NCBI GenBank assembly: GCA_964645795.1
Contig: CAZYCL010000001.1
Span: forward strand, 31,194-95,193
From: an uncultured Planctomycetales bacterium
Lineage (GTDB): Bacteria; Omnitrophota; Gorgyraeia; Gygaellales; Profunditerraquicolaceae
Direction of reading: 5' to 3'
Length of the DNA: 64,000 bases
Both the position numbers and the translations under genes were made by a program. The notes beneath the pieces were generated by a model. It saw only the letters and a program-made list of their open reading frames with translations, had not been told where the DNA came from and did not search any database. This document shows positions 37,599-52,596 of this stretch, piece after piece (the stretch's first letter is position 1; every line of letters begins with the position of its first letter).

Positions 37599-38306
37599 TT
37601 AGGCATTGATATCCAGGGCCACAAAGGCGATCTTTTCTTTGACCTCGGATATCTCTATCCGGTACTTTCCCAGCAGCATATTCTCGAAAGTCACGATACC
37701 GGCGCTTGATACATACGACTCCAACTCCCTGTCTTCCCTGAAAAGACTGACCCTGACGTCCTTGACCGCTTTATGAGTGCCTTTTTTCTTAATTACAACC
37801 GTGCAATCGAAGCGTTTTCCGGGCTTATTCGAGATCTTGACCTCGATAACCACATCCCTGAAATCCTTTAGGATAGTGACCTCATCCTTAAAATCCTTGA
37901 TCTGCCTGGAGCGCAACAGGACAGCGGCAACCAACTCCTGACCGACAAGGACTTCTCCGGTTGTATTAATGACCTCGATCATCCTTTCTTTGACCTTCAA
38001 AAGAATCTTCAGGGCCTGGCTGATAGCCTGTGCACCAAACTTTTCTCTTAGCATCCTAAGCGCTTCATCGGGAACGCTCTCTTCAGGCCCGACAGCTCCC
38101 GCCCTAATATCAAAGGCAAGCCTTTGAGCGCAGATCCTGCAACTCAAGATGTGCCTCTCAAACACCTCCTCCTGCCTTTCATTGAGCTTCCCGTCTAAAT
38201 AGCAACAGAAGGCTTCCTCTGCGGGATGAGAATCGCCTACGCCGGATTCGCTTCCCGGAAAATCCGCCAGAAGCCTTTTGATGAAAATGTCGATTTTCTC
38301 AGTCAT
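37599..38306 (-). CDS. Putative zinc-finger (ZAS, H-x3-C-x2-C) anti-sigma factor, no TM segment
   Basis: 235 aa with the HILSCRICAQ motif. It lies immediately downstream of an ECF sigma gene. Confidence 0.55.
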   Translation of the reverse strand: MTEKIDIFIKRLLADFPGSESGVGDSHPAEEAFCCYLDGKLNERQEEVFERHILSCRICAQRLAFDIRAGAVGPEESVPDEALRMLREKFGAQAISQALKILLKVKERMIEVINTTGEVLVGQELVAAVLLRSRQIKDFKDEVTILKDFRDVVIEVKISNKPGKRFDCTVVIKKKGTHKAVKDVRVSLFREDRELESYVSSAGIVTFENMLLGKYRIEISEVKEKIAFVALDINA

Positions 38307-38338
38307 GTTTTGGCTCCTTACTAATAGACGAAATAATC

Positions 38339-38947
38339 TTAAATATCTAACATAAATCCTTTGCTTTTAAAACACTGCCTTAGCTTGTTAACAATGCGGT
38401 TTTTTTGCATATCTACGGCCCCCCTGGAGGCCTTAAATATATCTTGCAACAAAGCCAGGCTTATGCCTTGATTGATGTGCAATTCAATAAAATAGCGCTC
38501 CTGTGGAGTCAGTGACCGCAGGCAGTCTTTTAAGCCGTCAAGTAATTCAGCCCGGCTTGCGGCATCGTAAGCAGAGACGGAGCCGGCATCGGCTATCTTG
38601 TCGCCTAAAACCGAGCCCCGGCTATCCTCATGATCCAGGGAAATGCTCATTTTTCGCGCCCGGACAAAATCGACGGTAAAGTGGATAGTAACTACCCTGA
38701 GCCAGGTGGCAAGCGAAGAGCCATTTTTGGCCTTGAAAGATTTTAATTTGCGGCAACCGTCTTTAAATAACAGGCAGAATATATCGTTGAATACTTCGTT
38801 AACCAGGTCTCTTGGCACAGGAACAGCGGACTTTTGGAAAACAGTTAGAATGTAGTTATATATAAGGCGGGAGTAACGGGAAATGAATTCTTCTAAGGAG
38901 TGTTTATCGCCGTTGGAGCAGCTCTGGATTAACTCCAGATCGTCCAT
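38339..38947 (-). CDS. ECF-type RNA polymerase sigma factor (sigma-70 regions 2 and 4)
   Basis: 202 aa. A region 2 pattern is present. Region 4 is LTPQERYFIELHINQGISLALLQDIFKASRGAVDMQKNRIVNKLRQCF. Confidence 0.75.
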   Translation of the reverse strand: MDDLELIQSCSNGDKHSLEEFISRYSRLIYNYILTVFQKSAVPVPRDLVNEVFNDIFCLLFKDGCRKLKSFKAKNGSSLATWLRVVTIHFTVDFVRARKMSISLDHEDSRGSVLGDKIADAGSVSAYDAASRAELLDGLKDCLRSLTPQERYFIELHINQGISLALLQDIFKASRGAVDMQKNRIVNKLRQCFKSKGFMLDI

Positions 38948-40752: not shown

Positions 40753-41010
40753 CTACTCCATCACTTCCGCATCGGTGTCAATGGCCTCATTCGGAGCTTT
40801 AGGCTGTCCTGCCGCCATTCTCCGAATCCGCAGCTTGATGAGAAAGGACGTCAGAAAAAGCAGAATAATAAGGAACACTTCGATTACCAACCATGCAGAA
40901 AGCCTGAAGAACATCCATCCGAAAAAGGAGTTTAGGAAGATAAGCAGCGGCAGCAGGCAGCCTGCCCCGCTTAAGACCAGTATCTGGCGATGCCCGAACG
41001 CAGCCGGCAT
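40753..41010 (-). CDS. Small membrane protein (two TM helices)
   Basis: 85 aa, hydrophobic. Confidence 0.35.
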   Translation of the reverse strand: MPAAFGHRQILVLSGAGCLLPLLIFLNSFFGWMFFRLSAWLVIEVFLIILLFLTSFLIKLRIRRMAAGQPKAPNEAIDTDAEVME

Positions 41011-41360
41011 CAGGTATTGTTCCTTAACAGAACCAGGATAGCCGAGTGCGGAACGACGATGAACTTCTTCTGCTCAAACTCCAGCTCAATGCCTGCGCTG
41101 CGAAGGAATATGCAGTAATCGCCTTCCTGGGCCTGAAGGGGAAAGTATTTATTTTCGTGCCTCGGGGCCTGCCAGGGCTCGCCATCAATTGCCTGGGGGT
41201 CCGGAACCGGATACCCCGGCCCAACCTTGCTTACCCTGCCGCCCTGGACCTTCTCTTTCTCTTTTACCCCTTGCGGAAGATACAGGCCGGTATCGGTGCG
41301 GTCCCCTTCTTCGCTCGGCTCTATCAGGACCCTGTCGCCGACTACTATCAATTCTTTATC
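41010..41360 (-). CDS. GroES (Cpn10)-family co-chaperone-like protein with an insertion (start likely MDKELIVVGDRVLI)
   Basis: VGDRVLIEP...TGLYLP...QGGRVSKVGPG...GDYCIF pattern. No groEL is nearby. Confidence 0.55.
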   Translation of the reverse strand, partial: DKELIVVGDRVLIEPSEEGDRTDTGLYLPQGVKEKEKVQGGRVSKVGPGYPVPDPQAIDGEPWQAPRHENKYFPLQAQEGDYCIFLRSAGIELEFEQKKFIVVPHSAILVLLRNNT

Positions 41361-41367
41361 CATTTGG

Positions 41368-41877
41368 CTAAAACCTCTCCCAATGCAATAATTCTGCCAG
41401 CGGCTTTTTATCCTTATGCGAAGGCCCGGCTGCATCAGGGTAGCCGAGCGCGATGAGGCTTACAAGCTTAAGCCTCGCTGGCGCAGCCACAAGGGCTGAG
41501 ACCCTTGAGCAGTAATCCTTCTTATCCCCGGCTATCCAGCAGGAACCGACCCCCAGCGCCTGAGCCGCCAGCAGGATGTTCTGGGTGGCTGCCGAGCCGT
41601 CTTCCAAGTAATACTTGGTGTCATCGCAAAAAACCATGACACAGGCAGCAGCCCCGGAAACGAACCTGCCGTTCTCGGCGAGCCCGGAGATCTCTGACAT
41701 CACCTTTTTATCCGTCACCGCCACAAACTGCCAGGGCTGGACATTCCTGGCGGTAGGGGCCAAACGCCCCGCATCGCAGATCTGCTCCAGAACGTCTTTG
41801 GGGATTGGCTTATCTTTAAAACTGCGGCTGCTGCATCTTTTCCTGATCGCCTCCAAAGCATCCATTATCCCTGCCAC
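41368..41877 (-). CDS. Nitroreductase family protein
   Basis: RCSSRSF...PTARNVQPWQFV signature. Confidence 0.8.
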   Translation of the reverse strand: MAGIMDALEAIRKRCSSRSFKDKPIPKDVLEQICDAGRLAPTARNVQPWQFVAVTDKKVMSEISGLAENGRFVSGAAACVMVFCDDTKYYLEDGSAATQNILLAAQALGVGSCWIAGDKKDYCSRVSALVAAPARLKLVSLIALGYPDAAGPSHKDKKPLAELLHWERF

Positions 41878-42397: not shown

Positions 42398-42425
42398 TTG
42401 ACAAAATCCGCCCGGACGCTATAAT
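42398..42425 (+). promoter_or_regulatory. Near-consensus sigma70 promoter (TTGACA-16-TATAAT)
   Basis: TTGACAaaatccgcccggacgcTATAAT lies about 165 nt upstream of the 42589 start codon. Confidence 0.55.
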
Positions 42426-42500: not shown

Positions 42501-42531
42501 CCCCGCTGTTAATGGCGGGGTTTTCCTTTTT
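42501..42531 (+). promoter_or_regulatory. Intrinsic terminator within a 5' leader (CCCCGC-TGTTAATG-GCGGGG plus TTTTCCTTTTT), a candidate attenuator or riboswitch expression platform
   Basis: A perfect 6-bp GC stem is followed by a plus-strand U-tract. It lies between the promoter and the SD/ATG of the 753-aa gene. No plus-strand gene lies upstream of it. Confidence 0.5.
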
Positions 42532-42588: not shown

Positions 42589-44850
42589 ATGAAAGAGGAT
42601 ATTTTTACATTTGCCAGGAACATAATAACGCTCCTGCCCGGTGCGCCTGATGATCCTGCCTTCCGGCAAACCGCAAACTCTTTTATCTTGCTGCTTCAAG
42701 CGGATGCGCAAATAAAGAAAAAGGTCTTTGGTTTATCGCCGGCCGCGGACGAAACAGCGTTCAAGAATAAAATCCTCCCCTTTTTCGAAGAACAAACCGG
42801 GATTAAAAAGACCCCTTTATCTGAGGAAATACTGCGGTTCCTGGCCTGTGCAGCTGCATATATCATCGTATTCTGCGACACTCAAACCTGCGCAATAGAA
42901 AGATTCCTCTTTATCGAGAATGCGGCTTTGGGCAATAAAAACAATTACTACCTGCAAAACGCCATTAAGGAGGTAACCGGCGTCCTTTCGGATATGTCTT
43001 CGAAGAATTTCATAATTAATGAATCCAGCCGCTCCGAGAAGCTCTCGCCGGTCTTAACATACCTTCCAAGGATCCATATGCGCTCCCCTATTAACGCCCA
43101 CCTTTCATATTTATCGGTAACCCGCGATGGATACCACGATTCTGTATTTTTTCCAGAGAAAATATCGGAAAAGGATGAGGTTGAATATTTAAAAGCATTT
43201 TATGATTTTGCCGACTTCTACCCAAAAATAGAGCTGTGGAAAGAATCTGCCTGCCTGGCAGCGGTTAAAGTTGCCTTTAGGATCATCAAAGATTCGCCCG
43301 GGAAGAATTTAAAGCTGCTGAAGAGGCGCATGGATATGATTTGCAAAAAAGATGCTGGCTACTTAAAGGTCTGGAGGCAGATTGAAAATATGCAACCGGA
43401 CATGATCGCCGGTAAGTTCGGCTTTGAATCATTAAAGATAAGGGAATTAAAGACCGTGCTTGATTTCTGCTTGCTGCTTATAGCTGTGGCATTGTGGTCC
43501 GCAGGCGGGCCCCGCATGCAGTCAACCGCAAGGCGCACGATAGAAAGATTCCGGCAGAAGTATAAAAACAATTCCTCGATTATCAAAAAAACGGCTTTAT
43601 GCCTGCTCTCCATGGATTTCGCTTTCATGCAAAATAACGCAATCGGGGCATTAATGCACGATGAACACCGCTCAATACTCAATGCGCTCAAAGCCATCAA
43701 CCCTGAAACTCATGTCCGGCCTCTTGTCGGACTGCAGCCGTGGGCCAGAGACAGCTTTGCGTGGCTTGATGAAGAGTTCCGCCTGTTTCTGCAACCCAGC
43801 CTCGGGAATTTGCAAAAGATCAACTACCGCGGGAATCTTACCGAAGGAGGTAATATCGTCTTCGGTACCGCGAAGGGAAAATTTATACTGGTATCAAGAG
43901 AATCGTCTAAAGATGAAATTGAGCTCATCCAGCTCTACCTGGAAACTAGAAATCGGCGAATACAGATGTACGTCTTGCCCGGCGGCTTTACCTGGACAAG
44001 AAACACGCGCACAAAAGAAGATATTATCCTGAACTCCAGCCATATAGACTCGGTGATCAATATTGTCCCCTCCGGCTGCACGATGGACAACAGAATTAAG
44101 GTTATCGTCGACCCGCATTACTATGGCATGGTAAAAGAGGAGCCAGAATTCAGCCGTTTTATCAGGGAGCAGGAAATTTGGCCTGAAGACGTGGTCATAA
44201 TTGACGAAAGGGAAAAATATCTCAACCTTGCGAATTTTAGCATTGTCATTGACCAAAAAAACCGAAAAATGGCCCTATTCAACAATGACAAGGGGTATAC
44301 CCTGCACCGCCTGAAAATTAAAAAAGAGTGCCTCTTTAAAACAGGCATTGAAATTACCAACATATCGGCGTTCAACGGCAGCATCCGCTGCGTTACTAAT
44401 GTCTTCCCTTCCTCTCAGCTCAAAAATGAAGGGCAGCTCTTAATTGCCGTAGGCGCCGGAATACCCCAGGAATCGGAAGCGCGAATACTGGCCCTTTTCG
44501 CCGATAAGAAACACCTGCTAAAACATCTCAAGCGCTCATGGATATCGTGTTTATTTATTCGCCATTATACTGGGAAAAGCTACTCTGAATTCGACGGCTT
44601 GAGCCTGACCTTATTGATCGGCCTTAACAGAAGCGACCTTGACAACCCTGAACGCGCACGTATTTTCATTGAGCGCAACATCAACCGTTACTGCTCTCAC
44701 TTAAAAAGGAAAATGGGAGTATCATCTTGCGGGGAAACCATAACCGACGCCCCATCCGCCTCCCCTGGAATCGATTGTTTTATACGGCGCGGCTCAGGGC
44801 AAACAATAAGCTATGATGAGTTCATCTCCATGCCTCAGGGAAAACCCTGA
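42589..44850 (+). CDS. Large hypothetical protein with a ~380-aa N-terminal domain of unknown function and a C-terminal agmatine deiminase/PAD_porph-like guanidino-modifying domain
   Basis: 753 aa with a good SD (AAAGAGGA). The C-terminal half carries W-A-R-D-S, TEGGNIVFG and a terminal NGSIRCVTN motif. In agmatine deiminase/PAD-type enzymes the corresponding motifs are WxRD, EGG(S/N)I..DG and GGGNIHCIT with the Cys nucleophile. Confidence 0.6.
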   Translation: MKEDIFTFARNIITLLPGAPDDPAFRQTANSFILLLQADAQIKKKVFGLSPAADETAFKNKILPFFEEQTGIKKTPLSEEILRFLACAAAYIIVFCDTQTCAIERFLFIENAALGNKNNYYLQNAIKEVTGVLSDMSSKNFIINESSRSEKLSPVLTYLPRIHMRSPINAHLSYLSVTRDGYHDSVFFPEKISEKDEVEYLKAFYDFADFYPKIELWKESACLAAVKVAFRIIKDSPGKNLKLLKRRMDMICKKDAGYLKVWRQIENMQPDMIAGKFGFESLKIRELKTVLDFCLLLIAVALWSAGGPRMQSTARRTIERFRQKYKNNSSIIKKTALCLLSMDFAFMQNNAIGALMHDEHRSILNALKAINPETHVRPLVGLQPWARDSFAWLDEEFRLFLQPSLGNLQKINYRGNLTEGGNIVFGTAKGKFILVSRESSKDEIELIQLYLETRNRRIQMYVLPGGFTWTRNTRTKEDIILNSSHIDSVINIVPSGCTMDNRIKVIVDPHYYGMVKEEPEFSRFIREQEIWPEDVVIIDEREKYLNLANFSIVIDQKNRKMALFNNDKGYTLHRLKIKKECLFKTGIEITNISAFNGSIRCVTNVFPSSQLKNEGQLLIAVGAGIPQESEARILALFADKKHLLKHLKRSWISCLFIRHYTGKSYSEFDGLSLTLLIGLNRSDLDNPERARIFIERNINRYCSHLKRKMGVSSCGETITDAPSASPGIDCFIRRGSGQTISYDEFISMPQGKP

Positions 44851-44926
44851 CGCATGAATGATCGCACATATTTCTTGAAATAAAATCCATGTCGGGATAG
44901 AATATAGGCTACGAAAGGGAGCGGAT

Positions 44927-45079
44927 ATGGAAGAAAACAATCCTGTTCTGGAAAAAAAGCTTCAGGAAATTGACCAGCGCATTGACAAAAAGTTTGAGCC
45001 TTTTAAGGAACAGCCGATCATGCAGCATATCGCTGGGCTTGCAAAAGACTATCTTAAGAAAAAGATAAAACTATCCTGA
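44927..45079 (+). CDS. Small ORF (50 aa, charged/helical), absent from the ORF track
   Basis: It has a strong SD (AAAGGGAG) 7 nt upstream of the ATG. Its stop lies 4 nt before the HDOD gene ATG, which suggests translational coupling. Confidence 0.4.
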   Translation: MEENNPVLEKKLQEIDQRIDKKFEPFKEQPIMQHIAGLAKDYLKKKIKLS

Positions 45080-45083
45080 TACG

Positions 45084-45935
45084 ATGAAGCGCGAAGAGAT
45101 AGAACATTCGCTGACGCAGGTAAAAGAGCTTCCCACGCTGTTTAAGAATTATTCGGAGCTGCGCCTGAAACTCCAGAACCCGGATGCATCGTTCGCGGAA
45201 GTAGCCAAGCTCATTTCCCTGGACCAGACGCTCACCACCAAGATCCTGCGCAGCGCCAACTCCCCCTTCTACGGCCTGATGAACAGGATCTCAACCGTCC
45301 AGCACGCAATAGTCATCATAGGACTGGAGGGAGTGCAGTATCTGGTGCTTAACACCGCGGTGCTCAATTTCTTCACCAAAGGCTTGGCGGCCGTGGAAGG
45401 CTTTGACATTACATCCCTCTGGGAACACGCGCAGGGCGCGGCGATATTCTCCAGGCTTATCGCCAAAAAAATCCGCCACCCTTCACCGGAAGAGATGTTT
45501 ACCGCAGGGCTCATCCATGACATCGGCAAACTATTTGTTTACAAGTACTTTCCCAAAGACTTCGCGCAGATAATCGTAGAGGTAAAAAAACAGAACGCCT
45601 ACATACTAGACGTGGAAAACCAGGTACTGGGGATAAACCATGCCGAAATCGGCGAAAAACTATTGAAGCAGTGGAACTTCCCCGAAAACCTGGCGCTCAT
45701 CACCGCCTTCCACCATGACCCATCCCTTGCCGGCGAACAGATGAAGAACGCCAGCATTGTGCATCTTGCCAACATAATGTGCTGCGCCTTCGAGATAGGC
45801 TCGCGCGGCGACAACAACATCCCGATCTTCCGGGAGAACGCCTGGCAGGGACTCGGTCTGAACACCCAATCACTTAACGAAATCGCCAGTGAATTTGAAC
45901 AGGAGATCAACAACTTCAATTTCATCGGCACTTAA
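45084..45935 (+). CDS. HDOD domain signal-transduction protein
   Basis: It has FAEVAKLISLDQTLTTKILRSANSPFYGL and GLIHDIGKL patterns of HDOD (HD-related output domain). Confidence 0.75.
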   Translation: MKREEIEHSLTQVKELPTLFKNYSELRLKLQNPDASFAEVAKLISLDQTLTTKILRSANSPFYGLMNRISTVQHAIVIIGLEGVQYLVLNTAVLNFFTKGLAAVEGFDITSLWEHAQGAAIFSRLIAKKIRHPSPEEMFTAGLIHDIGKLFVYKYFPKDFAQIIVEVKKQNAYILDVENQVLGINHAEIGEKLLKQWNFPENLALITAFHHDPSLAGEQMKNASIVHLANIMCCAFEIGSRGDNNIPIFRENAWQGLGLNTQSLNEIASEFEQEINNFNFIGT

Positions 45936-46817
45936 ATGCTCTCCCTTGTCGCCCCCAATATAATCAATGACACATCATTCGAATACCTGATCAACCAGCT
46001 GCCGGAGCCGGAGAAGATCCAGGAAAAAGACCTGCTTATTGACCTGGGCATAACCGAAGCCGTATACCCTTACGGGCTGCTTGGAACGCTAGAGTTAGGT
46101 ATCCACCTTAAAAATATGGGCTTGAATCCCAGGCTTAACCTCCCAAAAAATGAAAGCGTGCTGCAAAACATGAAAAGCAGCGGGTTCATAGAAATGGCAA
46201 GCCTGGCCTTCAAGGAACTTATGGGAGCGTGCACAAAACCCGCCGAAGACCCCTCGGTGCTGCTTAAGGTGACTCCGGTTGAAAGTTTCAAGGACGTGCA
46301 CAATATCGTATCCAGCGTAAGAAACAGGATAAAAGAGAACAATTATAGCGAAGACGATTACACCTGGGACAACATTATCGTAGCCATATCCGAAATCTGC
46401 CAGAACATACCCGAACACAGCAAAGACAAGGGTTTTGCGCTCATAAACATTTTATTCAACAAGGCCCACAAGAAGCATCTGGTCAATATCGTGGTAATGG
46501 ACCTGGGCGTAGGCATCAGAAGCTCGCTGGATAACAAGTTCTCTCCGATATTCAGAGATAGGTGGGGTGACCGCCTGGCCATACATAAGACGCTCTTTGA
46601 GGGCGTATCGCGTTATGATGACCCCGGAAGGGGCAACGGGATCATCAGGACGAGGGAGCTGGTAGTGGAGAAATTCAAAGGAAATATGAGCCTGCGCTCA
46701 GGGACTGCCAAGCTCTGGGGCAAGATCCCCGGCTGGGAAATAGAGAGGCTATTTAGAAAACCTTTGGTTTTCTTGCCCGGCGCCCAGGTCAATATCACCA
46801 TACCCCTTTCCCAATAG
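45936..46817 (+). CDS. GHKL (HATPase_c-like) ATP-binding protein, anti-sigma-regulatory-kinase-like, with an N-terminal domain of unknown function
   Basis: N-box-like EICQNIPEH, G1-like VVMDLGVGI and G2-like GRGNGIIRTRE motifs. Its start abuts the HDOD stop. Confidence 0.5.
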   Translation: MLSLVAPNIINDTSFEYLINQLPEPEKIQEKDLLIDLGITEAVYPYGLLGTLELGIHLKNMGLNPRLNLPKNESVLQNMKSSGFIEMASLAFKELMGACTKPAEDPSVLLKVTPVESFKDVHNIVSSVRNRIKENNYSEDDYTWDNIIVAISEICQNIPEHSKDKGFALINILFNKAHKKHLVNIVVMDLGVGIRSSLDNKFSPIFRDRWGDRLAIHKTLFEGVSRYDDPGRGNGIIRTRELVVEKFKGNMSLRSGTAKLWGKIPGWEIERLFRKPLVFLPGAQVNITIPLSQ

Positions 46818-46890: not shown

Positions 46891-49800
46891 TTACTGAAGG
46901 GGTTTTTCCCAGGCCGCGATATAACGCTTGGCCTGCTCTACATCCGGATCGTTCGGGGCAAGGGTTATATACTTCCTTAGGTGCATCAGCGCCCTGGTGC
47001 GGTCCTGCATCTGCTCGCCGTATAAAACTCCCAGGTTATAAAGCGCCTCGGCATCTTCCGGGTTAGCCAATAGCACCTTCTCAAACTCCGCAACTGCCTT
47101 CATGTAATCCCGGTTCTGGCTATAAAGGACGCCGAGGTTATAGTGAAGAGTGGCATTCTCCTTAAGGGCGCTGGTCTCCTTCATCAGCTTATACTCGTGC
47201 TCCAACAACCTATAAGCTTTATGCAACTGCTCGTAATCCGTCCTCATCTTCTTAATGGTATCGGAGAGCACCCTGTTCTGGCTTTCTGATTCCCTGGCCA
47301 GCTGGTTATACTCCTGCATGCGGCTATTCTTTTCCATCTGCGCGCCGTCCAACTCGCTCTTTAAGAACGCTGCCTTTTGCTGAAGGGCTTGGTTGGTCTC
47401 TTCAAGCGCCAGCCTCTTGTTCTCAAGGCTATCCTTCTGCTGATTTAACCAGCGCAGCGACTCCTGGGCGTTCTGCAGGTCCTTGCGTAACTTTTCCAGC
47501 TCGCTGCTTAAGCCAGCGGTGACCGCTTCCTTCTGGGCCTTTAACTGTATCATCTGGGTGTTCAGCGCTACATTCGACTCTTCTTTCTCCACCCGCAGCT
47601 TGGCTAACTCAGCGTTCAGGCGGTTTATCTCGGAATCTTTCTGGAGGAGGTTCTCGTCCTTCTGGGCCTGCAGTTCGTCAAGCTCCTGTGCGCGCATAGC
47701 CTTGAATTGCGAAAGGGTCTCCTTAGCCTGTGCGGCCTCCCTCTGGAGAGCGGCGACCTGCTGATTCAGGCTCAATAGCTGGTTATTGGAGTCCTGCTTC
47801 TGACGGGTCATCTCGACTATTTGCGCCTGAAGGGCGACCACCTGATCGGATAACTTAGCATACTCCTTGCGCAGCGACTCTTCCTGTATGGCCGTAGTCT
47901 GGAACCTGCGTTCGGCATCGCTTGAGCGCTTCTCCAGCTCTATGAACTTATCCATCAGCTCTTTCTTTTCCCTTGCCCAGCCCTCGCCTGTCCTTGATAA
48001 ACCCGAAAGCTTGTCTTCCGCGGTCTTTGCTGCATACTGCAGGACCTGGGCCTGAGTTTCCAGGGCAAGCTTCTGATTCTCTAAATCCTTGATCGTTGCC
48101 AGCAGGTCGCGCTTCTCTCCTTCAACATCGTCTTTCTGCCGGCTGTATTGAAGCATGGAATCCTGCATATCCTGGACCGCTTTCTGATAACGCGCGATCT
48201 CCGAAGTAAATCCGGCGGCCTCCGCATCTCTCTGCTGCTTTAGTTGATTGAGCTGGGTGAGGAGATTGGTAACATCCTCTTGCCTCTTTGCCTTAATCTC
48301 ATCGCGCTGCTGCCGCAGCTGCGCCAGTTCGTCCTCACGCTGCTGTAGCCTGCCTGCCAGCCTCTCCAGCTCCTGATCCTTCTGCTTCTTCGTATCGTCC
48401 AGACGGCTCTTTAGGATAGCCGACTCTTCCTTCTTCTGGCCCCTAAGCTGCACAAGCTGCTCATTGAAGAACTCCTGGGTGCTCTGAAGGTCTTTCTGCA
48501 TCTGGGCGTTTTCCGCAGCCAGCGCCTTCAAATCGGCTTCTCTGCGCTCAGCCAACAGCTGCATCTGGGCTTTCAGCTGGGTTATCTCCTGTTCCTTCTC
48601 GGCGTACTGCTGGGCCTTTTCCTGCTTGGCTGCTGCCAGCTCCTGGCTTAGGATATCCAACTGCCCCTGCGTTTCCTGAAGGCTTGCGACTATGTCGCCC
48701 TTTTCTTTTTCAGCCGCTTTAAGCTGCTCGACCAATACGCTTACCTGCTGATTCAAATCCTGGCCCTGCTTATCCAGGCCCGCCTTCTGATCACACAGCT
48801 CCTGGTGTTTAACCATCAGCTGACGGTAGTTATTATCGATATCGTTCTTTTCGTTGTTAAGCTGGCTGAGTAATTCGGTCTTCTCCTTGACGTCTTTGCG
48901 CAGCTTGAATATCTCCTCGTTGAGGTCCCTGAGCATTGTTTCTTTCTGGCTGTTGAACTGTGCCAGCTCGGCGTCACGCTGCTTCTCTAATGCTGCGATA
49001 TCGCCGTCCCTCTTTTCTCGCGCAAGGCTTACCTGTTCCTTAAGCTCTGTGATCAGGGCCTCGCTCTGAAGGCGCAAGTTTGCCAGGTCCTGCTCGATCC
49101 TTGCCTTGGCGTCGCCGGTCCTTACCATCTCCTGATTAAGCTTCTCTATCTGCTTCTGCCTGTCGTTCAATAGAGTCTGGAACTCCTGCTCTTTCTGGCT
49201 GCCGGAACGCGAAAGCTGCTCATTACGTTTAGTGATATCCGCGAAATCCTTTTCCAGCTGCGCGAGCCTGGTTTTCAAGGCCAGGTTTTCCTGCTGCACT
49301 GAGTCTTTTGACGAAGAAACGGTGTTGACCTTGGTTTCCGCGGCTATGAGCGCATCACGCAGGTCTTTGACCTGCTTCTCAAGCGTAGCTTTCTCGGGGA
49401 CAAGCTGCGCTATCCTGTTGTGCAGGGAAAGCTTCTCCTGTTGGCCGGATTCGTAGTTCGCGGAAACCGTCTTTATCTTCTCATCCGAAAGCTTAACCGC
49501 TTCCTGAAGCCCCTTGATTTGTTTTTCCAGAAGAGACTTCTCCTGTGCGAGGTTAGCTGCCTGGAGCCTGGTATCATCGAGCTCTTTCTGCTGCCTGATA
49601 AGCGAATCCCTTAAAGCCCTGGTATCGGACTCCTGACGGCTCTTTAGCTGCGCCAGCTCTTGGTCTTTCTGGGATTTGAGCTTAGCAAGCTCGAGCCCGA
49701 GCCTGGTCAAGTCCTGTTCTTTTTGCGCTCCTGACTGGACAAGCTGGTCGTGCCGCTTAAGGGCCTCGGAGAGCTGCCTATTCAGCTGCGACACCTTATC

Positions 49801-52596
49801 CTCTAACCCCAACTTCTCCTTAAGCGCTGATTCGTTGGCTTTGGAGATAGCGGTGAGCTTTGCCTGGCCTTCCTTCAGGGAGCTGCGGGTTTCCATTATC
49901 TGTTTCTCAAGGTCCGCCTTTTCGCGCTCCAGCCTTGCTGTCGTTTCCCGGCTGTCATTAAGTTGCCTGCGCGCCTTTGACAGGTCATCCTTTATTCCTT
50001 TTACTCCGGCTTCCATACCCTTCTTTAACCGCAGTAACTCATCGTCATGGGCAGATTTTAATCTTGCTATCTGATCAAGCAGGCGTGAAGCCTCGGTCTC
50101 CTTCTGATTCTTTAACTGCGCCAGCTCATTGCCCACTTTACCCAGCTCATTGGAAAGGGCTTCAATCTTCTTAGAACGCACTGCCAGTTCATCGGCCAGC
50201 TCTTTTTCGCTATTGCGGCTTAAAATCTTAAGATTCTCCTGGTCCCGGCGCAGCCCTTCGATGGTCGTCTTCTGCACTTCAAGCAGCAAATTAAGCTCTT
50301 GTTCTTTCTTGGCGGCCCTGGATACCAGGTCTTCATTGCGCTTTAGCGCATCGGCAAGATTGCTTTCTGCCTGCGTAAGCTTGCCTTGCAAGGCGGATTT
50401 CTCCTGGTTGGCGGCCTCTTTGGCATTAGAAAGCATGCCCGCGTTGTCTTCGGACTCCTTTAGCGCGCCCTTAAGGTCGCCGATAGCCTTCTCTGCCCTG
50501 CCCTTTTCCTGCGTAAGCTGCGCGTTTGCCTGCCGCAGCTGGTTTATATCATTGCGTAAACCGGCGATCTCGTCTTTGAGCTTAGCGGACTGGGCATCAA
50601 AGCCGGAATTAAGCTTAAGCAGATCCTCGTCCCTCTTGGACTTAAGCTTGGCTATCTGATCAAGCAGCCCCGATACCTCGGAGTCCTTCTGGATCTTTAG
50701 CTGTGAATAATCTTTCTGGGAACGCTGCAACGACTCCCTGGTATTGGCCAACTCGCGGCGCAGCTCGTCAAACTCTTTGCCGGACTTCTGCGATTCCAGA
50801 GCCAGCGAGTCCTTCTGCCGGATAAGCTCGTTAAACCTGGACTGGGAATCGGCTAATTGGGTAGATACCTTCCTGAGGTCATCCTGTAAAGACTGGCGTT
50901 CCCGGGAAGATGTTTCAGACTGTTTCTGGGCTTGCTGCAGCTTATTGTTTAGATCGGCTATTTCCCTGCGCAGTGATGAATTCTCCTGGCTGAGGGCATC
51001 GTTGGTCCTATTGAAACCGGCCATTTTCTCTTCCAAGGGTTTCATCGAAGATTTCAATGACTGGACTTGTTTTTCCAAAGAAGACTTCTGGCCTTCAAGC
51101 TCCCTGATACTGGCGTTAAGCTGCGACTGCAGTTTCTCAGAAACGTCACGCTGCTGCACGGCCTTGACCAGGGCGTCCTTAGCTGAATCCAGATCTCTCT
51201 TTACAGCCGACAGCTCTGCACCCATATTTTTGGATTCTGAGGCGAGCCTATTCTTTAACGAATCGATCTCCTGTCGAAGCTGGCTGGCAAGTGATTCTTT
51301 TTGCGCGCTAAGACTGGCGTTTTCCTCTCTTGCCCTGGCCAGATCTTCCTTATATTGGGATTCTAACTGGGAGTACTTGCGGCCAGAATCCTGGTCCTGT
51401 TTCTCAAGCCTGGCCTTTTGCTCGGAAAGGTCCTTTAGCCGCAGCGTCAACTCTCTCTGCTGCACATCCTGATACTCCTTATCTTTTTTAATCCGGGCAA
51501 GCTCATCCTGCGCATCCCTTAAGCCCTTACGCAGGGCCAATACCTCTTCCTCTGATTTCTGAAGCTGGCTTGATCTTTGTTCCCTGATTTTAACCTGCTC
51601 CCGTTCATGCTGCTGCTTTAACTGCTGCACTTCCTGCTCTTTTTGGCCCTTCAGCTGGGTAAACAACGCAGTTAACTCATCCAACTGCTTCTTCGTCTTT
51701 AAAAGCTCTTCTTTAGACTGGGAGCCGGATTTATTAGCCGCATCCAGCTGTTGCCTAAGCTCGGCTATTTGATTGCGAAGCTCCTGAGAAAGCTGTCCGG
51801 ACTCCTGGTCCTTCTGGCTTTTTATCTTGGCGATCTCATCAAGAAGGCGGCCAGACTCATCCTCCTTCTCTTTTGCCAGCTGGTCATTGCGGTCTCTCAA
51901 CCGCCCTATCTCCTGGCTAAGAAGCTCTACTTGATTGCGCGCCTGCATCAAGGAAGAGTTAAGCGCATCGTTATCCCTTAAGGCAGCCAGCCCCCTGCTT
52001 TCCTTGGCGTCGATATCCTGTTTTAAGGCGCTGTTCTGGTCCTCAAGGCTGCGCGCTCTCTGGGCCAGCTCCTGGAGCTGGCCATTGAGGCCGGAGACCT
52101 CATTCTGCAGGAGATTGACGCTATCCTGGAGCTGGCGCTTCTCCTGGCTGCCGGCTTCGATGATCTTGTTTAATTCGGGAAGCTTCTGCTCAAACTCATT
52201 TAACGCGTCTTTTAAATTCTTGTTTTGCTGGGAGAGACTTTCGTTCTTTTGCTCAAGGCTGCGCATGGAAACTGCCAGGTCCCGATTTTCAGAGACGGCT
52301 GAGCCGGTATAGCGCATGATCTGCGCCAAGGTATCTAACGCCCCTTCCAGCCCCTGCCTGATCCGGGACAGCTCTACACCGAGGCTTTGCAAAAGCACGC
52401 TGTCAGAGCCTCCGCTCGACTTCAAGGTCTGCTCAAGCAGGCTTATATCTTGGGCAACGGCTTTTAACTGGATAGCAAGCTTGGATTCATTTTTGGATGA
52501 TGAGGGTTGAGCGCAGCAATGACGGGGACAGACAAATACGGCGGGAATAAAAAATAGAGCAAAAAGAATAAAGTAGGGGGATTTCTTCATCAACAT
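46891..52596 (-). CDS. Giant secreted coiled-coil protein (1901 aa) with internal ~150-200 aa repeat modules and C-terminal TPR repeats
   Basis: It has an N-terminal hydrophobic signal and ~1750 aa of Q/E/K/L-rich heptads with a recurring LLDQIAKLKSQKDQE motif. The C-terminal TPR region is NATLHYNLGVLYSQ...AEALYNLGVLYGEQ. Confidence 0.8.
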   Translation of the reverse strand: MLMKKSPYFILFALFFIPAVFVCPRHCCAQPSSSKNESKLAIQLKAVAQDISLLEQTLKSSGGSDSVLLQSLGVELSRIRQGLEGALDTLAQIMRYTGSAVSENRDLAVSMRSLEQKNESLSQQNKNLKDALNEFEQKLPELNKIIEAGSQEKRQLQDSVNLLQNEVSGLNGQLQELAQRARSLEDQNSALKQDIDAKESRGLAALRDNDALNSSLMQARNQVELLSQEIGRLRDRNDQLAKEKEDESGRLLDEIAKIKSQKDQESGQLSQELRNQIAELRQQLDAANKSGSQSKEELLKTKKQLDELTALFTQLKGQKEQEVQQLKQQHEREQVKIREQRSSQLQKSEEEVLALRKGLRDAQDELARIKKDKEYQDVQQRELTLRLKDLSEQKARLEKQDQDSGRKYSQLESQYKEDLARAREENASLSAQKESLASQLRQEIDSLKNRLASESKNMGAELSAVKRDLDSAKDALVKAVQQRDVSEKLQSQLNASIRELEGQKSSLEKQVQSLKSSMKPLEEKMAGFNRTNDALSQENSSLRREIADLNNKLQQAQKQSETSSRERQSLQDDLRKVSTQLADSQSRFNELIRQKDSLALESQKSGKEFDELRRELANTRESLQRSQKDYSQLKIQKDSEVSGLLDQIAKLKSKRDEDLLKLNSGFDAQSAKLKDEIAGLRNDINQLRQANAQLTQEKGRAEKAIGDLKGALKESEDNAGMLSNAKEAANQEKSALQGKLTQAESNLADALKRNEDLVSRAAKKEQELNLLLEVQKTTIEGLRRDQENLKILSRNSEKELADELAVRSKKIEALSNELGKVGNELAQLKNQKETEASRLLDQIARLKSAHDDELLRLKKGMEAGVKGIKDDLSKARRQLNDSRETTARLEREKADLEKQIMETRSSLKEGQAKLTAISKANESALKEKLGLEDKVSQLNRQLSEALKRHDQLVQSGAQKEQDLTRLGLELAKLKSQKDQELAQLKSRQESDTRALRDSLIRQQKELDDTRLQAANLAQEKSLLEKQIKGLQEAVKLSDEKIKTVSANYESGQQEKLSLHNRIAQLVPEKATLEKQVKDLRDALIAAETKVNTVSSSKDSVQQENLALKTRLAQLEKDFADITKRNEQLSRSGSQKEQEFQTLLNDRQKQIEKLNQEMVRTGDAKARIEQDLANLRLQSEALITELKEQVSLAREKRDGDIAALEKQRDAELAQFNSQKETMLRDLNEEIFKLRKDVKEKTELLSQLNNEKNDIDNNYRQLMVKHQELCDQKAGLDKQGQDLNQQVSVLVEQLKAAEKEKGDIVASLQETQGQLDILSQELAAAKQEKAQQYAEKEQEITQLKAQMQLLAERREADLKALAAENAQMQKDLQSTQEFFNEQLVQLRGQKKEESAILKSRLDDTKKQKDQELERLAGRLQQREDELAQLRQQRDEIKAKRQEDVTNLLTQLNQLKQQRDAEAAGFTSEIARYQKAVQDMQDSMLQYSRQKDDVEGEKRDLLATIKDLENQKLALETQAQVLQYAAKTAEDKLSGLSRTGEGWAREKKELMDKFIELEKRSSDAERRFQTTAIQEESLRKEYAKLSDQVVALQAQIVEMTRQKQDSNNQLLSLNQQVAALQREAAQAKETLSQFKAMRAQELDELQAQKDENLLQKDSEINRLNAELAKLRVEKEESNVALNTQMIQLKAQKEAVTAGLSSELEKLRKDLQNAQESLRWLNQQKDSLENKRLALEETNQALQQKAAFLKSELDGAQMEKNSRMQEYNQLARESESQNRVLSDTIKKMRTDYEQLHKAYRLLEHEYKLMKETSALKENATLHYNLGVLYSQNRDYMKAVAEFEKVLLANPEDAEALYNLGVLYGEQMQDRTRALMHLRKYITLAPNDPDVEQAKRYIAAWEKPLQ

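Follow-up and report, generated by a model that had tools for sequence, protein, structure and literature searches.

A rare bacterial protein family with a divergent pentein domain and a conserved, putative guanidino-modifying active site

What kind of protein is encoded by a 753-codon gene of an uncultured bacterium assigned to the Omnitrophota (contig CAZYCL010000001.1, assembly GCA_964645795.1)? The gene lies on a 64,000-nt stretch of this contig, hereafter the window, within which all gene positions are numbered. It is a single ATG-initiated open reading frame (ORF) at 42589..44850 on the forward strand (+), encoding 753 amino acids (aa) plus stop, precisely as an initial annotation had described it. 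An identical copy was called in an independent assembly (locus L011, 3506-5767), and the same organism, with its gene order unchanged and the gene identical, recurred in several sequencing runs. The initial annotation recognised, in the C-terminal half, a domain of the guanidino-group-modifying enzyme (GME) or pentein superfamily, and assigned it to the PAD_porph/agmatine deiminase (AgD) branch. Membership of the superfamily is well supported, because three independent lines of evidence agree on it: the fold, the catalytic residues, and the profile–profile similarity to two reference families. As a whole, the gene product is best explained, with fair confidence, as a four-part protein that contains a divergent pentein guanidino-modifying enzyme and may act on a macromolecule-borne substrate.

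Scans of the 753-aa protein against Pfam (2025) and NCBIfam (2026) returned no family even at E<=10, and PDB chain sequences yielded nothing relevant, whether searched by phmmer with the query or with hidden Markov model (HMM) profiles of the core and of the full-length protein. In a word-indexed search of 5.8 billion proteins the query came back alone, as a singleton cluster, and a profile search added one protein only (P0045). Exhaustive phmmer over 1.84 billion cluster representatives recovered 50 proteins at E<=1e-3. All 49 relatives recovered by exhaustive HMMER had been missed by the word-indexed search; a result of "no homologs" from indexed searching is therefore not meaningful for families as divergent as this one.

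The relatives fall into four groups. Two full-length proteins, P0002 (753 aa, 37% identity) and P0003, form the first. The second comprises 570-600-aa proteins that match query residues ~136-712; scans of genome collections located this form in Fibrobacterota and Chitinivibrionales metagenome-assembled genomes (MAGs) and on eleven further metagenomic contigs. In the third group, proteins of 450-1,000 aa, the ~265-aa core (query ~357-620) is all that is held in common with the query, and in the fourth, proteins of 2,000-7,650 aa, the core is present once, twice (P0021) or three times (P0019). No relatives were found in viral contigs, and a phage or mobile-element origin was rejected on this ground. 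A Pfam scan of all 32 family core domains at E<=10 also gave 0 matches; PF04371 (PAD_porph) and PF02274, the families proposed in the initial annotation as a check, thus match neither the query nor any of these domains. The literature searched does not describe the family. It is rare, appears to be undescribed and is missing from Pfam, NCBIfam and PDB sequence searches, and its relationship to known enzymes was recovered only by exhaustive HMMER searching together with structure prediction driven by a multiple sequence alignment (MSA).

The catalytic module, recognised by AlphaFold2 (AF2), Foldseek and hhalign, spans aa 357-612 (43657..44424, +). An AF2 model of residues 350-625, built with an MSA of the 32 core domains, reached a mean predicted local distance difference test (pLDDT) score of 89.9 and a predicted template modelling (pTM) score of 0.89; single-sequence AF2 of the full protein was unusable (pLDDT 37). 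The modelled core appears to adopt the alpha/beta-propeller of five pseudo-repeats that marks the penteins. Every credible Foldseek match in the PDB is a pentein enzyme: human DDAH-1 (6szq_A; E 4e-4, TM 0.47), the N-domain of the arginine dihydrolase ArgZ (6jv1; TM 0.49-0.50), AstB (1ynh; E 4e-3) and AgrE (6lrh). PADI chains matched weakly (E 0.027-0.23), among them PADI6 (9fmn, E 0.027) and PAD3 (7D4Y). The predicted pentein fold is supported by a confident core model whose credible PDB matches all belong to the superfamily. The proposed Foldseek comparison with AguA and PPAD turned out otherwise, as no AgD (AguA) or PPAD chain was among the top 50 PDB matches, which are led by DDAH, ArgZ and AstB.

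These best structural matches (DDAH, ArgZ-AgrE and AstB; PF19420, PF02274) have a similar domain size of ~255-280 aa, and in DDAH the N-terminal helix-strand, the E/D-A/G-G block, the Asn and the C-terminal Cys align with the window family. They differ from it in that neither PF19420 nor PF02274 gives an HMM match, that DDAH has H-L-K where the window family has H-I-D, and that identity is only 9-14%. The PADI enzymes (vertebrate/cyanobacterial type; PADI6 9FMN, PAD3 7D4Y) belong to the same superfamily and set a precedent for Asp/His/Asp/Cys chemistry on protein arginine. The window protein, however, has neither their Ig-like N-terminal domains nor a detectable sequence relationship to them, and its catalytic domain is much smaller.

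Five polar residues are strictly conserved among GMEs, in the order Asp ... His-x-Asp ... Asn ... Cys (PMC4893104; PMC6447857). In MtAIH (6NIB), His224, Asp226 and Cys366 form the catalytic triad and residue 94 binds the guanidine (PMC6447857); in PPAD the set is D130/H236/D238/N297/C351, with a role described for the Asn (PMC4893104). We examined these positions in an alignment of the 32 core domains, which are 23-50% identical to the query. W385-A-R-D388 (43741..43752, +) would provide the cavity Trp and the first guanidinium-binding Asp; the Trp occurs in 32/32 domains and the Asp in 31/32 (one Glu), aligned to MtAIH W91/D94 and PPAD W127/D130. The E419-G420-G421 block (43843..43851, +) is in register with both AgD (LEGGS) and DDAH (E/D-A/G-G), with G421 in 32/32 and E419 in 25/32. 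H485-I-D487 (44041..44049, +), aligned to MtAIH H224/D226 and PPAD H236/D238, holds the putative general acid/base His and the second guanidinium-binding Asp, both present in all 32. The fifth conserved polar residue, N549 (44233..44235, +), is likewise found in 32/32 and aligns with the Asn of the AgD 'VNF' motif and with PPAD N297, in register with AgD and DDAH alike. The candidate nucleophile lies in R600-C601 (44386..44391, +) and aligns to MtAIH C366, PPAD C351 and PaDDAH C249; the Cys is present in 32/32, and the preceding Arg in 23/32, with Gly or Ala in the rest.

Invariant positions among the 32 domains are W385, G421, H485, D487, D508, Y511, N549, N565 and C601. The spacing of D388/H485/D487/N549/C601 is 97/2/62/52, as against 106/2/59/54 in PPAD. 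Since W385, H485, D487, N549 and C601 are invariant, and D388 nearly so, across domains as divergent as these, the motifs are more than chance. The complete pentein active site thus seems to be retained, and on the sequence evidence the domain is very probably a catalytically competent pentein guanidino-modifying enzyme.

The three motifs quoted in the initial annotation, WARD (aa 385-388), TEGGNIVFG (418-426) and NGSIRCVTN (596-604), are all present, and Arg600 does precede Cys601 where AgDs have His. That list was nevertheless incomplete, as it missed the HID block (485-487) and Asn549, the strongest catalytic signatures. The description of the Cys motif as C-terminal and penultimate applies to the catalytic domain only, which the motif ends; 152 residues follow Cys601 (~149 after the motif), including a conserved domain at 613-715. 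The proposed check of Asp/His/Cys conservation came out positive for D388, H485, D487, N549 and C601, and the two features on which the earlier reading had been made to depend, a pentein fold and conserved Cys and Asp residues, were both found.

To which pentein branch does the domain belong? For profile–profile comparison with hhalign, an AgD reference profile was assembled from 6nib, 3h7c, 1xkn and 2ewo, gathered from the PDB with an approximate AgD query; the PaDDAH reference sequence is 100% identical to 3rhy_A. The 32-domain profile aligned to the AgD profile at 83.9% (E 7.7e-6, 223 columns, score 46.4), with WARD/WFRD, EGGNI/EGGSI, HID/GHVD, DPxY/DPQY, ANF/VNF and GSIRCVT/GNIHCIT in register. 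This alignment maps D388/H485/D487/N549/C601 onto MtAIH D94/H224/D226/N313/C366, and it is the only one in which all five catalytic residues are in register. As controls, reversed profiles gave 0.1% and 20 column-shuffled AgD profiles 0.0-1.4% (scores 10-22); the AgD and DDAH profiles compared with each other gave 1.1%. Against DDAH, the family profile reached 4.6% in local mode, 64% in global mode and up to 70% locally with some subsets, and comparison with one DDAH sequence alone gave no significant match. In the DDAH alignments the register holds for the N-terminal helix, the Asn and the Cys, but DDAH His162 is not aligned with H485. The distant half of the family favours DDAH over AgD (63% vs 33%).

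With the AgD/PPAD family (PF04371; MtAIH 6NIB, AtAIH 3H7C, S. mutans 2EWO, PPAD 4YT9) the window protein shares the motif order W-x-R-D, E-G-G-x-I, H-[IV]-D, N-F, G-x-I-x-C-[IV]-T, a residue spacing near that of PPAD and, presumably, the covalent Cys-thiouronium deiminase chemistry. Of the PF04371 signatures WxRDxGP, LEGGxIxxDGxGT, GH[IV]D, YxNF and GGNIHCITQQ, the cores are present (WARD, TEGGNI, HID, ANF, GSIRCVT), while their flanks (xGP, DGxGT, the pre-Cys His and QQ) are absent, and no family member matches PF04371 at E<=10. The window core is ~100 residues shorter than AgD, whose N-terminal ~50 residues (MPAEWEPH...WxxWP) have no aligned counterpart; further differences are the Arg in place of the pre-Cys His, the unique N-terminal helical and C-terminal domains, and the lack of an agmatine-pathway context. 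The guanidino-group-modifying domain that the initial annotation placed in the C-terminal half is supported by the confident model and the conserved catalytic residues. Its "PAD_porph/agmatine deiminase branch" is not supported, with no PF04371 match, profile results that swing between AgD and DDAH, and a Foldseek preference for DDAH and ArgZ. The active-site layout, as read from the alignments, appears closest to AgD/PPAD, yet the family probably forms a separate deep branch and should not be filed as a PAD_porph member.

Several observations weigh against reading the domain as a pentein enzyme. The sequence-profile libraries (Pfam, NCBIfam) all fail to recognise the domain, and the fold match is distant, with a best TM of ~0.5, an identity of 9-14% and one match only at E<1e-3. 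The hhalign result is unstable under jackknifing, ranging by family subset from 0.4 to 90% for AgD and from 0.9 to 70% for DDAH, with one half-sample at 0.4%. Close homologs alone gave ~1% for both AgD and DDAH (0.3-1.3%), and the signal was lost (0.3%) when a profile of close homologs only was extended upstream to residue 290. Glu419, which probably partners His485, varies within the family. The active-site set was read from sequence order and register, a level at which hydrolase and amidinotransferase chemistry are indistinguishable.

The blank Pfam, NCBIfam and PDB sequence searches, the marginal Foldseek E-values and the collapse of hhalign with some sub-samples would suit a spurious pentein likeness, or a catalytically dead domain serving as a structural or binding module like eIF6, with coincidental motifs. 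We consider this highly improbable. Even highly divergent members keep the five catalytic positions with almost no variation, correctly ordered and spaced much as in PPAD; the credible fold matches all come from one superfamily; end-to-end alignments to AgD and to DDAH each place Cys and Asn in register; and the reversed and shuffled controls scored far lower.

How might the enzyme work? From the observed fold, and from the conservation and order of the catalytic residues, we infer a chemistry by analogy with AgD, PPAD and DDAH. Asp388 and Asp487 would clamp the two terminal guanidinium nitrogens in a cavity lined by Trp385, with Asn549 helping to position the substrate. Attack by Cys601 on the guanidino carbon would form a covalent S-alkylthiouronium intermediate, and His485 would act as general acid/base. 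Ammonia (or an amine) would leave, and resolution of the intermediate by water would yield a ureido product, overall a deimination. The helical N-terminal domain and the C-terminal domain may supply target recognition or regulation.

The substrate is suggested by the company that the module keeps in its relatives. In P0020 (7,094 aa) it occurs with Fic, protein kinase, several S-adenosylmethionine-dependent methyltransferase and GNAT domains, and P0021 (7,652 aa) has it twice, at a distance of ~2,700 residues, with methyltransferase, PP2C, and PBP-type transglycosylase and transpeptidase domains. P0032 combines it with CheR and HEAT, P0044 with kinase, GNAT and TPR, and P0013 with kinase and acyltransferase. 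Three tandemly spaced copies (768-1037, 1256-1532 and 1753-2028) are found in P0019 (2,716 aa), which has no Pfam match anywhere, and five mid-size homologs carry N-terminal HEAT repeats and a C-terminal module. The distant copies within 5,900-7,650-aa proteins with many enzymatic domains recall the giant multi-enzyme proteins of uncultured bacteria, from which the window protein, at 753 aa, differs in being a stand-alone version; the paper on such giant genes mentions no deiminase, arginine or Fic module (bioRxiv 10.1101/2023.11.21.568195).

Genomic context was assessed by clustering all ORFs within 5 kb of a homolog at 11 loci. The only cluster present in more than three loci was the homolog itself, barring local synteny among related Fibrobacteria contigs, and no gene for arginine, agmatine or polyamine metabolism, for a transporter or for an immunity-like protein recurs beside it. 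Because the module co-occurs with protein- or macromolecule-acting domains in its relatives and has no metabolic context, we propose a protein-directed activity: the substrate would be protein-bound arginine or another macromolecule-borne guanidino group and not free agmatine or arginine, a proposal that we place a little short of an even call. The simplest such activity would be arginine deimination, as in PPAD. Two points tell against a protein substrate. The argument for it is one of domain co-occurrence in distant relatives, not direct evidence for the window protein, and small molecules are the substrates of all its nearest solved relatives, whether judged by motif (AgDs) or by fold (DDAH, ArgZ, AstB).

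This second point is also what speaks for a hydrolase or amidinotransferase whose substrate is a free guanidino metabolite, such as agmatine, arginine, an arginine that carries a methyl or acyl group, or an intermediate in the making of a guanidino natural product; the flanking domains would then serve oligomerisation or allostery. The most similar solved proteins would all fit, the AgDs by motif register and DDAH, ArgZ, AgrE and AstB by fold; hydrolases and amidinotransferases alike use the same Asp/His/Asp/Asn/Cys set (PMC6447857); and the ~100-aa C-terminal domain could be a ligand-binding regulator. Such an enzyme would nevertheless be expected to look different. The residues with which free-arginine enzymes bind the alpha-carboxylate and alpha-amino groups are not evident in the window family, no Arg pair or equivalent for the alpha-carboxylate being apparent in the variable 393-414 loop. 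A distribution this sparse and patchy, with 50 clusters in 1.84 billion, does not resemble that of a core catabolic enzyme. Fusions to Fic, kinase, PP2C, CheR, GNAT and HEAT recur in the family, and none of the 11 loci holds a conserved metabolic or transport neighbour. We regard a small-molecule substrate as a serious alternative, though a less likely one.

Could the protein instead be a secreted effector of the polymorphic-toxin type, one that is delivered to other cells, deiminates a target there and has a cognate immunity protein? The module stands at the extreme C-terminus of several 450-750-aa homologs, the giants resemble multi-effector proteins (Fic, kinase, PP2C), and PPAD shows that a bacterial deiminase can be secreted and serve in virulence (PMC4893104). 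However, the query has no signal peptide, and no PAAR, Rhs, LXG or other trafficking domain was found in the 10 homologs with a C-terminal module, whose N-terminal regions are HEAT or unannotated. No adjacent small ORF that might encode immunity is conserved in the 11 loci, a PADLOC scan of the query gave noise and no real match, and there are no viral or mobile-element copies. With neither trafficking domains nor a conserved immunity-like neighbour, the polymorphic-toxin idea was rejected, and we judge a delivered effector of this kind to be unlikely.

In the preferred account, a divergent pentein enzyme with a macromolecular target, the catalytic module is one of four parts. The N-terminal extension (aa 1-135; 42589..42993, +) is lineage-specific, aligning with P0002 and P0003 and no other member, and has neither a Pfam nor a PDB match. 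It is followed by a family-conserved domain (aa 136-356; 42994..43656, +) that is predicted to be all-alpha, its helix content being that of a low-confidence single-sequence model. This domain is conserved in P0002-P0015 and at loci L001-L003 and L015-L022, and besides the 570-600-aa family it is found in three large proteins (P0012 to P0014); K324, F344 and F346 are invariant, and an LWPxDFSF-like motif lies at ~338-346. A HEAT relationship was rejected (hhalign 0.2%), and its role may be target recognition or regulation. The "~380-aa N-terminal domain" of the initial annotation therefore exists as a region but is composite, not one domain.

Within the helical domain lies a very hydrophobic conserved helix, LKTVLDFCLLLIAVALWSAGG (aa ~287-306, nt ~43447-43506; KD19 = 1.93), which could either lie buried in the domain core or anchor the protein in a membrane. 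The protein had been called cytoplasmic and free of a signal peptide. No N-terminal signal-like sequence is present; as the helix may be a membrane anchor, a cytoplasmic location is not established. Downstream of the catalytic module, a conserved accessory domain of ~100 aa with an invariant D669 (aa 613-715; 44425..44733, +) was delimited from family alignments and reached 71.5% in hhalign against the post-core region of the distant members P0017, P0018 and P0022. The last ~38 residues (aa 716-753; 44734..44847, +) form a poorly conserved tail that aligns with P0002 and P0004 only. Neither flanking domain, N- or C-terminal, has a Pfam or PDB-sequence match in any of 11-18 family members.

The gene itself is probably a stand-alone, monocistronic unit. 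A sigma-70-type promoter-like site (TTGACA-16-TATAAT, a 12/12 consensus match) lies at 42398..42425 (+), 164 nt upstream of the ATG. The closest homolog, P0002, from a different organism and 37% identical, also has a 12/12 sigma-70 site (L004, 7906-7933), sharing the promoter but not the hairpin of the leader. This hairpin, which resembles a terminator, has a GC-rich 8-bp stem (CCCCGCTGTTAATGGCGGGG) followed by a T-run (TTTTCCTTTT) at 42501..42530 (+). It gave no Rfam match at E<=1, the leader folds no better than shuffles (z = -0.88), and no counterpart of it occurs upstream of the closest homolog; a riboswitch or attenuator is not supported.

The upstream neighbour is a divergently oriented 4HBT thioesterase gene, and a 4HBT thioesterase also lies near the gene at L003. 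Downstream, a 50-aa ORF (MEENNPVLEKKLQEIDQRIDKKF...; 44927-45079, +) with a strong Shine-Dalgarno sequence (AAAGGGAG) is preceded by a promoter-like site (44875-44903) and ends 5 nt upstream of an HDOD/HD gene (45084-45935, +); it was called in four other assemblies and has no Pfam match. The HDOD gene is translationally abutted by a 293-aa gene (45936-46817, +) that is weakly GHKL-like, with a sub-threshold HATPase_c_2 match (E 0.018) and N-box/G-box-like motifs seen by eye; its product may work together with HDOD as a divergent GHKL kinase or as an ATPase of the anti-sigma type. These three genes probably form an operon opened by the 50-aa ORF, with its own promoter-like site. The initial annotation correctly noted the terminator-bearing leader and the signalling genes that follow. 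Its suggestion of regulated, non-housekeeping use is not supported: the hairpin is absent at the closest homolog, no neighbour is conserved in the 11 loci, and a separate promoter-like site and small leading ORF precede the signalling genes.

A desulfoferrodoxin-type gene lies near the homolog at three metagenomic or MAG loci (L003, 8327-8896; L019, 2673-3239; L022, 7785-8375), most likely as a result of synteny between related Fibrobacteria rather than of any link in function. Elsewhere in the window, a 1,901-aa protein (46891-52596, -) begins with a signal-peptide-like sequence, continues as ~1,750 residues of coiled coil rich in Q/E/K/L and ends in a TPR module; AT skew over this region is strongly negative (-0.25 to -0.34). 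At 37599-38947 (-), a divergent ECF-type sigma factor (202 aa) with sub-threshold Sigma70_r2/r4 matches (E 0.006-0.02) adjoins a zf-HC2 anti-sigma-like protein (235 aa). A Cpn10-like protein (41010-41435, -) that is not beside groEL matches only positions 4-48 of the 93 in the GroES profile; its length is 141 aa in the ORF call and 117 aa in the gene call of L011, and it is an atypical co-chaperonin or a truncated one. No rRNA, tRNA or Rfam match was found in the window.

What would this family mean for bacterial arginine modification? To our knowledge, bacterial protein citrullination is tied almost wholly to PPAD, called "unique" in the literature, and to a few PADI-like genes. Tentatively, and with considerable doubt, we suggest that the family makes up a class of protein-arginine deiminases, citrullinating or related guanidino-modifying enzymes, that had so far escaped notice in bacteria. 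They would occur stand-alone with a helical adaptor or as cassettes, sometimes triplicated, in giant proteins that also hold Fic, kinase, PP2C and methyltransferase modules. If so, arginine deimination would be a regular bacterial protein modification or effector activity, not peculiar to Porphyromonas PPAD and PADI homologs, and the family would be a third lineage beside these two, invisible to standard annotation and with the full catalytic set kept. Even with a small-molecule substrate, it would be a new deep pentein branch outside Pfam and NCBIfam, with two uncharacterised accessory domains. Activity on proteins would extend what is known of arginine deimination in bacteria and give a function to a recurrent, unannotated module of some of the largest bacterial proteins.

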